From NCBI GenBank assembly GCA_963791045.1, contig CAWBQK010000019.1, positions 1 to 33,499 on the forward strand: 33,499 bases of DNA. The letters run 5' to 3'. A model generated the notes under the pieces. It had not been told where the DNA came from and did no database searches. It saw only the letters and a program-made list of their open reading frames with translations. The translations under genes were made by a program, and so were the position numbers. Positions 18,524 through 22,429 of this stretch are shown here, piece by piece (within the stretch, counting starts at the first letter, position 1; every line of letters starts with the position of its first letter). This stretch comes from Candidatus Latescibacterota bacterium (lineage in GTDB: Bacteria; Krumholzibacteriota; Krumholzibacteriia; WVZY01).

Positions 18524-19177
18524 TTAGAGAAGAGACAAAACATCTTCGGGGTTCTCAATGATCGCCTGCGCGCCGCTAAGCTGAAGTTCGTCCGCCGTCC
18601 GAAATCCCCACAACGCCCCAACGGGGAACATGCCCGCGGCAACCGCCGTTTTCATATCGATCGATGTATCGCCCACAAAAATTATTTTGTGAGGCTCGAG
18701 CCCAAGCCGTTTTGCAATATCAAACGCGCCCAACGGGTCGGGCTTGGGCGGAACGCGTTCGCAAAGCCCCATGACAATCGCGAAGGACCAGGCCCCAAGC
18801 AATTCCGTGACGCATTTCTGTGTAAAGTATTCGGGCTTGTTGGAAAACACGGCGAGCTGGAGTCCGCGGCTCGTCAGGCCATCGAGCATCTCCGATACAC
18901 CCGCGTACACCGTTGTCTTGTTGTTCCAGTTGGCGTCGTATTCACGCCTGAACTCTTTTACCATCTTGTCGACCGTCGCGTCGTCGCGGGCACTCTCGGG
19001 AAGGACCCGGCGGGTGAGCTTACGGACACCGTCTCCAACGAAATACCGGAAATCGTCGAGAGGGTGCTGTGGAAAGCCGTGACGGGCGAGGACGCTATTC
19101 GCCGAGTCAGCGATGTCCTCGAGCGTGTCGAGAAGCGTGCCGTCGAGGTCAAATATTACGGCGTCAAATCGCATCAT
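18524..19177 (-). CDS. HAD hydrolase, phosphoglycolate phosphatase-like
   Basis: FDLDGTLLDT, SNK, KPDP, FVGDTSID. Confidence 0.88.
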   Translation of the reverse strand: MMRFDAVIFDLDGTLLDTLEDIADSANSVLARHGFPQHPLDDFRYFVGDGVRKLTRRVLPESARDDATVDKMVKEFRREYDANWNNKTTVYAGVSEMLDGLTSRGLQLAVFSNKPEYFTQKCVTELLGAWSFAIVMGLCERVPPKPDPLGAFDIAKRLGLEPHKIIFVGDTSIDMKTAVAAGMFPVGALWGFRTADELQLSGAQAIIENPEDVLSLL

Positions 19178-19482
19178 TCAACCAGGACGCATCCATCGTG
19201 CACGACCTCGCCATTGATTTCAAGAAACGCGCTCTTTCCCTTCGACCAGAATACATATTTGTCTCCCTCGTACTTCGCGCCTGACGCTGCCGGCACAAGC
19301 TTGAGAGTATGGTTTCTCCCGTCATAGCGAAGAGTCGCCGTGTTTCCGTCCTCGGGAATGGTGATCACGAGATACGTACCGTCTCCACACTTGTAGGTGA
19401 ATTGCTTGCCTTCGGGTTGCTCGCACGCAGTGAAGCCGATACACACGATTGCGGCAAGGATAAACACTCGTACAATCCTCAT
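19174..19482 (-). CDS. mliC: MliC/PliC family lysozyme inhibitor lipoprotein
   Basis: Lipobox-like GFTAC; YKC; AASGAKY and FWSKG motifs; C-terminal Cys. Confidence 0.85.
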   Translation of the reverse strand: MRIVRVFILAAIVCIGFTACEQPEGKQFTYKCGDGTYLVITIPEDGNTATLRYDGRNHTLKLVPAASGAKYEGDKYVFWSKGKSAFLEINGEVVHDGCVLVE

Positions 19483-19624
19483 CGTTCCGAGCCTCCAATG
19501 ATTCGTGTGTTTCCGTGGTCCGGCGGTCGATCCGCCGACCTGAATCTACACCGGCGACTGTATTTTCTCAAGGCGATTCAATATTCCGGTGGAAGAGGGG
19601 GGGGCACCGACTGGTCGAATTGAC

Positions 19625-19698
19625 AAAAAGAGCGGCGACCCGAAAGAGCCCGGCCTTTATTTGTTAAAAACACAGTAAACCGGGGTTTCAGATCGCCG
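19625..19698 (-). terminator. Long imperfect hairpin followed by CTCTTTTT (terminator-like)
   Basis: Minus strand CGGCGATCTGAAACCCCGGTTTA...TAAAGGCCGGGCTCTTTCGGGTCGCCG pairs nearly end to end using G-U pairs, then a U-rich tract. Confidence 0.45.
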
Positions 19699-19985
19699 AC
19701 TGTTCTATCGAGCCTCAACCCTCGCCTCACAAAGAAAATAGTCGAGGGGTTTCGTTCGATTTCGTATGCGAAGGCAGATCGTTTTCTTCGATGTTCGTTC
19801 GAAACGGCGGACGCAGAAAAACTGCAAGCGTGGAGGTCATCCCGGCAGACGTCGGAGACAAATCCATTGAGGTTTTTTTCACCGATATTACTCCCGCGCT
19901 GACAAGTGACGCGGGACGGTCCATAAAATACTACGGGGGAAACTTGTGGTGTGTTGCTCTCTTTTTTGCATCGGCGGGTTCGGGC

Positions 19986-20022
19986 AAAAAAAAGGGGGCG
20001 CCCCGACCAAGGTGAGCGCCCC
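19986..20022 (-). terminator. Rho-independent terminator
   Basis: GGGGCGCTC-ACCTTGGTCG-GGGCGCCCC followed by C and 8 T on the minus strand. Confidence 0.9.
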
Positions 20023-20154
20023 ATTTTACCGCAACCGACAGACCTCGCGGTGAGCTATCTCTTTTGGGCATCGCTGCGTCGCCATCCCATCGACCCGCCC
20101 CTGTGTGTCCGCCGGTCGTTTTGCGGAGTGCCGAGCTACCTTAATGATAGCCAC
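19986..20154 (-). ncRNA. Candidate ~170-nt small RNA (or leaderless 42-aa ORF) of unknown family
   Basis: Bounded by an extended -10 promoter and a strong terminator; several complementary segments (GGCTATC/GGTAGCT or GATAGC; CCGCAA..CGAC/GTCG.TTGCGG; ACC-GCGA-GGT). Confidence 0.55.
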
Positions 20155-20160
20155 GTCGCA

Positions 20161-20171
20161 ATTATAACACA
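20161..20171 (-). promoter_or_regulatory. Extended -10 sigma70-type promoter TGTGnTATAAT
   Basis: Minus strand reads TGTGTTATAAT; no consensus -35 at 17-bp spacing; predicted +1 near 20154. Confidence 0.75.
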
Positions 20172-20210
20172 TTCGGCGCGCCAGAGAGTTAGGGAAGGCC
20201 AAGTTTTTTC

Positions 20211-20224
20211 TTGATTTTTATCAA
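20211..20224. promoter_or_regulatory. FNR-type (CRP/FNR family) binding site
   Basis: TTGAT-TTTT-ATCAA, an exact match to the TTGAT-N4-ATCAA consensus, centred about -63.5 from the predicted +1. Confidence 0.65.
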
Positions 20225-20254
20225 CTAGTTACGCGTATTTTGTCAATTTTTGCC

Positions 20255-20830
20255 CTATCTTGACAGCCTTTTGACCTCGCGGTAACGGAAACAGTCGACG
20301 ACATGGTCGTTGACCATCCCAATCGACTGCATCAGCGCGTAGCAGATCGTCGAGCCGACAAAATTAAAGCCCCGCTTTTTGAGATCCTTGCTCATCGCGT
20401 CGGATTCGGGCGTCGTCGCTGGCAGTTCACGCATGTGATTCCACTCGTTCTGTATCGTTTTGAAATCAACGAATCGCCAAATATAGGCGTCGAACGTTCC
20501 GAATTCCTCGGCGACGTCGAGAAACGCCCTGGCGTTGCGGACGGCGGAGGCGACTTTGAGCCGGTTGCGGATGATCCCGGGGTTCTCGAGCAGCCGGGCC
20601 ATGCGTTTGTCGGTGTAGCGTGTGACTTTCGCCGGGTCAAAGTTGTCGAACGCCTTGCGGTAGGATTCCCTTTTTTTTAGAACGGTCGACCAACTGAGAC
20701 CCGCCTGGGCTCCTTCGAGCACAATCATTTCAAAGAGGAGACGATCGTCGTGGACGGGCACGCCCCAATCGTTGTCGTGGTAGTCGACATAAAGCGGGTC
20801 GGTGCCGCACCACTCGCATCGTTTTTTCAT
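20255..20830 (-). CDS. tag: DNA-3-methyladenine glycosylase I
   Basis: RCEW, YHDNDWG, LEGAQAGLSW, IIRNRLK, FVGSTICYA, MVNDHVVDC. Confidence 0.95.
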   Translation of the reverse strand: MKKRCEWCGTDPLYVDYHDNDWGVPVHDDRLLFEMIVLEGAQAGLSWSTVLKKRESYRKAFDNFDPAKVTRYTDKRMARLLENPGIIRNRLKVASAVRNARAFLDVAEEFGTFDAYIWRFVDFKTIQNEWNHMRELPATTPESDAMSKDLKKRGFNFVGSTICYALMQSIGMVNDHVVDCFRYREVKRLSR

Positions 20831-20892
20831 CTGCCGTCCCCGATGTGTTTTGTTTTATAAATGCCCGTTATATCTGCGCCGGCCGCTGCGGT

Positions 20893-22429
20893 TCATTCGT
20901 CCGATCCAGCCCGGGCTATCAGTTTGAGATCAGACTTCCCGATCGCTTCTTGAAAATGCATCGTCAGAACCCCGTCGTCAAACACCATCCGCGCACTGCC
21001 GCGCCGCGTTTGTCCGAGCGCTTCGAATTCGAGGACAAATGTGTTTTCGTTTTCCCAATGGCCCTTTGTACGCCTGGAGAAGTCCCTCCGCGTCGGATAA
21101 CCGGTGAACGCCGTCGAGACCGACATCGGCTTCGATGTGCCGGAATCCAAGGGAGGCCTCTATCGCCGCCTCGTTCTTGCCGGGTTCGAATTCGAGTTCT
21201 ATCCATTGGAATCCGGCGGCGTTGGCGTCGAAATCAAACCGCTTGCCCGAAATCTCCGCCGCCATACCGGGAAGCGCCGGGACGGGTTGGGGCTCCGGGT
21301 TCGCCGCATCGTCGATCACCTCGGCGAGCCGGCGCGCGCCTTCTGAGTCGGGTGACAACGGCTTATCGTCCACGACGGACAAAAGGATGAAATCATGATA
21401 GAGCTGCCGAGGCACAAAAAACTTGCGGGACTCGAGACAGCTCGTGACCACGGTTACCATGTTCTCGTCAGGGTGGACGAACACGTACTGTCCCGCGTGA
21501 CCGAGCATCATGTAGTAACCCATATCGTTGGGCCAGACCTGGTACCCGTAACTGTCGGACAACGTGCCCGCGACAATGTGCGGTTTGACGGACTCCTCCA
21601 TCCATTCCCGCGATACGATCTGCTTCCCGTCCACGTTGCCCTTATGGAGAAAGAGGTAGCCGATCTTCGCAAGGTCGGCCGGGGCCATTACGATATTGCC
21701 CCAGCCGGTGTTGATGCCGCTGCGGTCCATCATCCACTCGACGCCGGTGATACCAAGCGGTCCAAAGAGGTTTTCGTTGGCGAAATCGAGGGCCGTCATA
21801 CCGGTGGCTTTCTGCAGAATCGCGGTCAGAAGATACGACGCGCCGTTGCAGTACTCGAAGCGTTCACCCGGTTCGTGAATCATCGGAAGACCGAGCACAT
21901 AGTCCGCCCAGATCGGCTGCCTCATCATCGTCCGCAAGCCCGCCCATTCGAACTTGTAAGAGTCCTCGCACTGAAACCCCGTTGACATGGTGAGCAGATG
22001 CTCGATGGTCATCTTTTCTTTGGCCGCGTCACGGTTGTCGATTTTTTTGCCGGGAAAGAAATCGAGAACCTTCTGGTCGACACTATCGAGATACCCTTTG
22101 TCAATGGCGATGCCAATGAGCGTTGCGGTAATCGTCTTCGTGCACGAGTGTATGATGTGCGGCGTTTCCTGGGGATAAGGCGCGAAGGACGCGTCGAGTA
22201 CTTTGCGGCCGTTGCGGACAATGATGATGTTCCGGATCTTGATGTCTTTGTCGGGAATGATTTCGACAAGCGCGACGAGGGTGTCGGAACTCATCCCCTG
22301 CTCTTCGGGAGACGCCGTCCGCCACTCGTTGTTCGGCCAGGGCTCCTGTGCTCCGGCGCGAACGGGGAGCGTCCCGATCAGTACGGCGAGGACACAGACA
22401 AACCAACACGCGGTGTGGAATCTCCTCAT
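20893..22429 (-). CDS. Exported serine hydrolase, beta-lactamase class C/NylB-like; frameshift near 21063
   Basis: Signal peptide; SxxK (HSCTKT), LLTMSTG, YCN, LGHAGQ. Removing one G in AAAGGGCC continues YKGHWENENTF... to the stop at 20893. Confidence 0.85.

Follow-up and report, generated by a model that had tools for sequence, protein, structure and literature searches.

A candidate FNR-linked small RNA directly after tag in an uncultured sediment bacterium

Results

A candidate small RNA stretch follows tag

We analysed a window of 33,499 nucleotides (nt) from the genome of an uncultured sediment bacterium, Candidatus Latescibacterota, in which a candidate small RNA (sRNA) stretch is located directly 3′ of the DNA-repair gene tag. 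Its prominent features are a perfect FNR-type palindrome, an extended −10 element and an intrinsic terminator, which are listed with their surroundings in Table 1. An earlier note, made from the letters of the window, had described this box, an extended −10 without a −35, and a GC-rich hairpin of 9 base pairs (bp) followed by eight U residues, and all of them were found exactly at the positions it gave. With the hexamer ACTCTC placed 17 nt before the −10 of TGTGTTATAAT, there is no −35 region. The terminator is made up of a 5′ arm (GGGGCGCUC, 20022–20014), a 3′ arm (GGGCGCCCC, 20003–19995) and the U run (19993–19986), and its fold was computed at −19.1 kcal/mol. A strict terminator scan gave 145 terminators genome-wide and only this one within 19000–21000. 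A consensus scan, which allows loops of up to 8 nt, missed it because its loop of 10 nt is above that limit.

Between the stop codon of tag (20255) and position 20022 no terminator was found, and tag transcripts must therefore enter the RNA region. The same note had called the unit self-contained. This is put in question by the RNA contig described below, which reaches to 20199, and tag uses the same terminator. Just past the stop codon, the TTGACA at 20246–20241 is followed at 16–18 nt by the −10 candidates TTGATA, TGATAA and GATAAA, which are poor and none of which is of the TANNNT type; it falls outside the 153 TTGACA-N16–18-TANNNT sites counted in the genome. Judged from its letters, it may be part of a weak upstream promoter. 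Downstream, the roughly 770 nt between tag and mliC contain no credible gene.

Table 1. Features of the tag-mliC region, in window coordinates.
Feature	Position	Strand	Evidence or remark
tag (DNA-3-methyladenine glycosylase I)	20255–20830	−	PF03352, E-value 4.4e-85
TTGACA, perfect −35-like hexamer, 9 nt past the tag stop codon	20241–20246	−	sequence reading
Perfect FNR-type palindrome TTGATAAAAATCAA (TTGAT-AAAA-ATCAA), centre 20217.5	20211–20224	.	sequence reading, genome box scan
Open reading frame (ORF) of 58 codons, TTG start	20026–20202	−	judged non-coding
Stretch present as RNA	20028–20199	− (inferred)	one whole 172-nt contig, depth 5, 0 mismatches, run X3
Extended −10 element TGTGTTATAAT (TGn + TATAAT), 44 nt after the box	20161–20171	−	inferred +1 at 20154
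5′ hairpin GGCUAUC-AUUAA-GGUAGCU, 7 bp	20134–20152	−	−8.0 kcal/mol, z −2.2
Central long-range helix domain, CCGCA/UGCGG and 10-bp helix ACCGGCGGAC/GUCUGUCGGU around an inner hairpin	20029–20126	−	−41.1 kcal/mol, z −2.43
Intrinsic terminator, 9-bp GC stem, 10-nt loop, U8	19986–20022	−	
Gene-poor gap before mliC	19483–19985	−	148- and 65-codon ORFs score non-coding; very stable hairpin at its end
mliC (lysozyme inhibitor), next convincing gene	19174–19482	−	PF09864

The stretch is present as RNA in one sediment metatranscriptome

Parts of a 781-nt query were contained in 16 public runs from 12 studies, one of which was an RNA library. Four runs were aligned to 19100–20900 (1.8 kb), namely the RNA run X3 and the DNA runs X1, X2 and X4. 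X3 yielded five pieces over this region. One was the 172-nt contig of Table 1, which matched along its whole length; the other four fall on tag and carry 3–19 mismatches, and thus are conserved parts of other organisms. Apart from the 172-nt contig, nothing in X3 matched the 1.8 kb at 99% identity or above, tag and mliC included. Since DNA carry-over at a depth of 5 would also cover the flanks, the contig points to local enrichment of RNA. The minus strand was assigned to it because of the terminator. The DNA runs gave only fragments of near-identical strains over 19438–20048, which were too short for an analysis of variation. The earlier note had looked to metatranscriptome reads for a discrete transcript starting at 20154. 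RNA of the stretch was indeed found, with flanks that have no cover at 99% or above, but the 5′ limit of the contig disagrees with that start.

A cognate FNR-family regulator and the FNR boxes of the genome

As the earlier note had anticipated, the genome encodes a CRP/FNR protein with an ExxSR recognition helix. The protein (C9:122844–123551) has 235 residues, the domains PF00027 (cNMP_binding) and PF13545 (HTH_Crp_2), an N-terminal cysteine cluster CxxCx8C and the helix ETLSR. Its best NCBIfam models were FnrL and Fnr, which matched over the full length, but below their cut-offs. An orthologue was found in 4 of the 36 relatives searched (G012, G017, G007 and G004), and three of these four have an ET[LF]SR helix, the match in G004 being partial with no helix visible. 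A box is located directly 3′ of the fnr-like gene in our genome and in all four relatives, where it is perfect in three and has one mismatch in the fourth.

Perfect FNR boxes occur 12 times in the genome, and three of them, including that of the window, are intergenic according to a crude ORF map that covers 89.6% of the DNA and leaves 10.4% as intergenic. For 20 letter permutations of the half-site the mean was 3.4 copies in total and 0.75 in intergenic DNA, and the FNR half-site ranked first. The comparison across relatives is the stronger line of evidence. A search for a classic FNR regulon around 43 intergenic boxes with at most one mismatch had 20 annotated neighbour genes, among which only sufB, a ribonucleotide reductase and an iron-sulphur (Fe-S) subunit of the fumarate-reductase type were suggestive. 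The one-mismatch boxes look mostly like noise.

Several loci with such boxes are described here in their own right. At the fnr locus (C9:122150–122860 in our genome) and in the four relatives, the gene is followed by the box and a predicted promoter, and in our genome, G012 and G004 then by an ORF with a signal-peptide-like hydrophobic start; the ORF in our genome encodes 172 residues and belongs to no Pfam or NCBIfam family. Together, the fnr-linked box, promoter and ORF look like a conserved core member of the low-oxygen regulon of the lineage. A second FNR-like paralogue (C3:60463–61176) has an N-terminal CxxC and the helix ETLVR rather than ETLSR, and four HTH_Crp_2 hits above the family cut-off were counted in the genome. 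A fourth candidate for an intergenic perfect box (C13:88039) lies in a small hydrophobic ORF on the opposite strand. Upstream of sufB there is an FNR-like box in our genome (C13:222340, TTGATTTTTGTCAA) and a perfect box in G010, 52 nt before a TATAAT that has TTGACC as its −35; these boxes may link Fe-S assembly to the regulator. At C1:216970–217310, two convergent genes are separated by a second gene-poor spacer, in which there are two FNR-like boxes with one mismatch each, a good TTGACA-17-TGcTAATTT promoter, a 35-codon ORF (MSLANFSS...) and an intrinsic terminator; this may be a small-protein or sRNA unit. At C18:83332–83434, a CHAT-TPR gene and a Ser/Thr-kinase-TPR gene enclose a perfect and a one-mismatch box, which are 89 nt apart, and the sequence around the perfect box is similar to that around the window box (26 nt at 85% identity).

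The box-promoter spacing is typical of the family

We measured spacing from the end of a box to the next −10 hexamer that matched TATAAT in at least five of six positions with A2 and T6 kept. The window box gave 44 nt. At the fnr locus of our genome two boxes gave 43 and 65 nt, and the fnr-linked boxes of G017, G012 and G004 gave 44, 63 and 64 nt, respectively; that of G007 had no qualifying −10 hexamer. The C18 box of our genome gave 63 nt. When 13 genomes of the family were scanned for box-N42–66-TAnAAT, there were seven matches (43, 44, 47, 52, 64, 65 and 65 nt, the 47-nt match being inside a coding region) against none for the reversed control. The 52-nt match is the one before sufB in G010. 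The 43-nt match is in G011 (C170:3994–4056), where a perfect box is located 43 nt upstream of TATAAT before a gene for a multi-haem cytochrome c, in which several CxxCH motifs occur. By its sequence, this promoter is an independent example of the −63-type geometry of the family. As a background, qualifying hexamers occur near one-mismatch boxes at about 0.0037 per position, and with loose boxes in the intergenic DNA of our genome about 50 box/hexamer pairs were counted across 70 spacings, with a small excess at 43–46 nt (9 pairs). The data agree on putative family-typical box positions of about −63 and −84, and the predicted promoter of the window matches the former exactly.

The extended −10 element was examined in the same genome. 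TGNTATAAT has 84 genome copies, 40 of them in the 10.4% of intergenic DNA, and the 6S RNA gene of the genome (C6:15203–15379) has the extended −10 TGgTAAATT with no recognisable −35. On the basis of this intergenic enrichment and of the 6S promoter, an extended −10 alone is plausible as a promoter in this organism.

In E. coli, the FNR consensus is TTGATnnnnATCAA, the site is at −41.5 ± 4 in 19 of 23 activated promoters, and activation from about −61.5 is rare, with very few such sites (PMC3688515). The site of fnrS, which is under direct FNR control, is at −42.5, a class II position (PMC3688515). A start at 20176 would set the window box at the class II position of about −41.5, but there is no −10-like hexamer to match it. 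The earlier note had put the box at about −63.5 and likened it to a class I site. Its arithmetic is right if +1 is at 20154, and the spacing of 44 nt is family-typical, but the position is not that of E. coli class I, from which it is 2 bp off (−61.5).

The RNA matches no Rfam family and looks non-coding

No match at the gathering score was obtained with Rfam anywhere in the window, and no family was assigned to the stretch, as the earlier note had expected. At E-values up to 10, only microRNA and Xoo2 noise appeared on the terminator, and there was no FnrS match over 19850–20350. A 6S-like fold, which that note had offered as its weaker alternative (RF00013), was rejected, since the 6S RNA of this genome is encoded elsewhere (C6:15203–15379, 58.1 bits) and the candidate stretch has no match. 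6S RNA is usually encoded by a single gene per genome.

The pairing segments that had been read in the stretch are all present: GGCUAUC (20152–20146) with GGUAGCU (20140–20134), a distal GAUAGC, CCGCAA (20126–20121) with UUGCGG (20034–20029), and ACC-GCGA-GGU. Two sub-domains folded mildly beyond chance: 6 of 200 shuffles equalled the central 100 nt (z −2.43), and 5 of 200 equalled the 5′ hairpin (z −2.2). The GNRA-capped stem ACC-GCGA-GGU was absent from the minimum-energy fold. This stem and the switch-like pairing of GGCUAUC, as the note had termed it, stand as letters only, with neither statistical nor comparative support.

Coding potential was assessed by a codon log-likelihood score trained on 1,511 long ORFs of the genome. 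The three ORFs of the gap, with 58, 148 and 65 codons, scored −0.106, −0.107 and −0.057, compared with 0.222 for tag and 0.191 for mliC. These values are in the lowest 2–3% of genuine in-frame 58-codon chunks (mean 0.185) and in the middle of the range of stop-free wrong-frame chunks (mean −0.046). ORFs that cross the RNA unit itself scored −0.106 and −0.096. A Pfam search found no family in any of the three gap ORFs. For the 58-codon ORF, which has an internal ATG at 20172 that would give 48 residues with four cysteines, tblastn in 60 relatives returned noise only (best E-value 0.03 per genome), and a protein set of 5.8 billion clusters contained no candidate. Neither its TTG nor its ATG start is preceded by a Shine-Dalgarno sequence, and mliC has GGAGG. 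The RNA stretch looks non-coding on these grounds.

Further observations at the locus and in the genome

A long hairpin on the minus strand at 19615–19712 was very stable (−40.2 kcal/mol, z −5.3, none of 200 shuffles as good) and is followed by CUCUUUUUG. It closes a further stretch of about 360 nt of non-coding-looking sequence past the first terminator, and is single-copy in the genome. The RNA run X3 gave no cover over it. The hairpin may represent another terminator or another small RNA. At C13:4256–5159, ARAGORN called two overlapping transfer-messenger RNA (tmRNA) genes, of which one is permuted; the tag peptides are implausible, and the two calls are probably one tmRNA read twice.

Discussion

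A proposed mode of expression

On the basis of these results, we propose that the stretch encodes a lineage-restricted non-coding sRNA, about 167 nt long and transcribed from the extended −10 under control of an FNR-family regulator, ended by the terminator that it shares with tag, and accompanied by longer forms. We put this at about even odds (roughly 0.5). The locus probably holds a real orphan small RNA, regulated by the FNR family, within the 3′ region of tag. The main promoter would be the extended −10 TGTGTTATAAT, with a start near 20154. From its site at the perfect box, 44 nt before this element, the FNR-family regulator would most likely drive the RNA in low oxygen through a class-I-like contact at about −63. 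Transcription would end at 20022–19986. The RNA would act by base-pairing with mRNAs, a role taken over by analogy from other terminator-ended bacterial sRNAs. What the data show are the sequence elements, the non-coding signature, the cognate regulator, the family-typical spacing and the local presence in an RNA library; the strand and the start site are inferred, and so are FNR activation and the mode of action.

The 5′ limit of the contig indicates that some molecules start further upstream, at or before 20199. They could come from read-through of tag, from processing in the A/U-rich segment 20210–20200, or from the weak TTGACA promoter. For molecules started at TTGACA, the box would overlap the promoter and so be in a repressing position.

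Evidence that weighs against the proposal

Several results weigh against this proposal. In the RNA run, the contig extends on its 5′ side to 20199, which is 45 nt beyond the inferred start, and its 3′ limit is in the A-rich linker just before the GC hairpin, which is itself uncovered. Contigs give neither strand nor true ends, and this one comes from one run of one study. Because tag has no terminator of its own, any RNA here is possibly its 3′ untranslated region (3′UTR). The enrichment of the box is modest, as two permuted palindromes, with 10 and 9 copies, come close to its 12. Some of the choice of spacing classes was made after the data had been seen, and the fnr-linked promoters are related by descent. 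The fold as a whole does not exceed chance, with −68.2 kcal/mol for the 171-nt RNA (z −1.43, 18 of 200 shuffles equally good) and a z of +0.13 against shuffles for the 227-nt form.

The remaining points concern conservation and targets. BLAST of 247 nt against 60 relatives gave four chance matches of 22–27 nt, of which the one inspected was inside a long ORF. No homologue was found beside tag in 28 relatives (blastn, nhmmer), in 80 metagenome loci (best Tag identity 77%), in 80 genome loci (blastn/nhmmer, 242 loci overall), or with one exact 23-nt pattern in a genome contig collection. A single-sequence covariance model run on the 60 relatives retrieved only hairpin and terminator look-alikes, the best at 27.9 bits with 101 model positions deleted. 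The RNA is single-copy in its own genome, and its genus is represented by one species among the genomes compared. Since no homologue was found, there is no alignment and no covariation, and the support that the earlier note had sought from relatives did not materialise. Perfect complementarity to the start regions of 3,241 ORFs reached 12 nt at most, against 11–14 nt in 30 shuffles, and an unconstrained duplex search gave meaningless long duplexes only. Hfq (PF17209) was not found in the genome, the assembly of which is 81% complete. The view of that note, an FNR-linked sRNA of no known family, agrees with the absence of an Rfam match, the non-coding look, the cognate regulator, the family-typical spacing and the RNA in one metatranscriptome, but has against it the upstream 5′ limit of the contig, the missing homologue and a fold not beyond chance.

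Other explanations of the RNA

The strongest of the other explanations, which we still regard as unlikely, is that the RNA is a long 3′UTR of tag, or a stable piece of it left by decay or processing and shielded by the terminator hairpin, with no part played by the box and the −10. The open path from the tag stop codon to 20022 would allow it, the contig reaches to 20199, upstream of the proposed start and into a region that only read-through or an upstream promoter can supply, and the sequence is not conserved. However, the coding region of tag has no piece at 99% or above in X3, while the 172-nt piece has a depth of 5, and a perfect extended −10 together with a perfect box at the family spacing is jointly unlikely by chance.

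A cis-acting leader or attenuator with a conditional terminator, serving the second unit (19985–19615) or mliC, appears quite improbable. The alternative pairings of GGCUAUC, the location of mliC on the same strand, and the second hairpin and U run at 19712–19615 would fit it. It is opposed by the roughly 500 nt without coding signal between the terminator and mliC, by the absence of any riboswitch or leader family in the Rfam scans, and by the sequence reading, in which no segment clearly competes with the terminator stem. In addition, the RNA contig does not reach the hairpin, and X3 contributes no cover beyond it.

We consider it very improbable that the stretch has no function, being a chance or decaying promoter-like array in a variable spacer that is reached by pervasive transcription. 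Such an array would be an orphan element with no thermodynamic or target signal, as this one is. It would also suit the place, since mliC occurs in only 2 of 36 relatives and the tag-mliC spacer is thus in a variable part of the chromosome. What it leaves unexplained is the coincidence of a perfect box, a perfect extended −10, the family spacing, a strong terminator and local RNA enrichment.

A variant of our proposal, to which we give similarly little credence, is that one FNR dimer acts as a promoter switch, turning the long form off and the shorter form on, so that oxygen changes the isoform. Since at most about 18 nt separate the centre of the box from the 5′ limit of the long RNA downstream of it, bound FNR would block the long form, and the same dimer at −63.5 of the extended −10 would switch on the short form. 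The long form would carry a CU-rich, anti-Shine-Dalgarno-like 5′ extension (CUUGGCCUUCCCUAACUCUCU) that the short form lacks. If this were true, oxygen would alter the target range of a riboregulator and not only its amount, and the FNR of this lineage would act from −63/−84 rather than −41.5.

Finally, a small basic protein of 48–58 residues with four cysteines is hardly credible: the limits of its ORF (20202 or 20172 to 20026) nearly match those of the contig (20199–20028), its stop codon is 4 nt before the hairpin and it has a CxxC...Cx9C pattern, but only the lowest 2% of genuine in-frame chunks have a codon score like its own, which is typical of wrong frames free of stops. Both starts lack a Shine-Dalgarno sequence, no Pfam family, tblastn relative or protein cluster matches the ORF, and the strong −10 puts the start site downstream of the ATG.

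Comparison with known sRNAs

The proposed sRNA resembles FnrS of the Enterobacteriaceae (RF01796) in that an sRNA gene is preceded by a consensus FNR site and ends in an intrinsic terminator, and in the presumed logic of an oxygen sensor turning on a riboregulator. FnrS is about 120 nt long, compared with about 167–225 nt here. The candidate RNA has no sequence or structure match to RF01796, and its genome yielded no Hfq at the completeness given above. The promoters also differ, as fnrS has the class II site at −42.5 (PMC3688515), against −63.5 from the inferred +1 here.

In gene arrangement, the proposed sRNA resembles those embedded in the 3′ region of an mRNA whose terminator they share, in that it lies directly after a coding region, has the only terminator of the gene, and could be made from its own promoter or by read-through. 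Such sRNAs include DapZ and MicL, which have their own promoters, and CpxQ, which arises by processing. Unlike in DapZ and MicL, the predicted promoter of the candidate is located after the tag stop codon and not within the coding region. AniS of Neisseria and other sRNAs with FNR, Anr or FixK boxes are lineage-specific and share only the FNR-type promoter box; the candidate RNA is unrelated to them in sequence. Rfam 15 and the sequence collections searched contained nothing similar, and the candidate is an orphan RNA in the known class of FNR-box sRNAs.

In model bacteria, sRNAs switched by an oxygen sensor rewire metabolism, and riboregulation in uncultured sediment lineages is almost unknown. 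The stretch after tag is a concrete, testable candidate with RNA support in situ. The geometry of the family, with the box 43–44 or 63–65 nt before the −10, is perhaps more useful than the RNA itself, as it differs from the E. coli norm, and it could be used as a rule to predict the low-oxygen regulon in these genomes.

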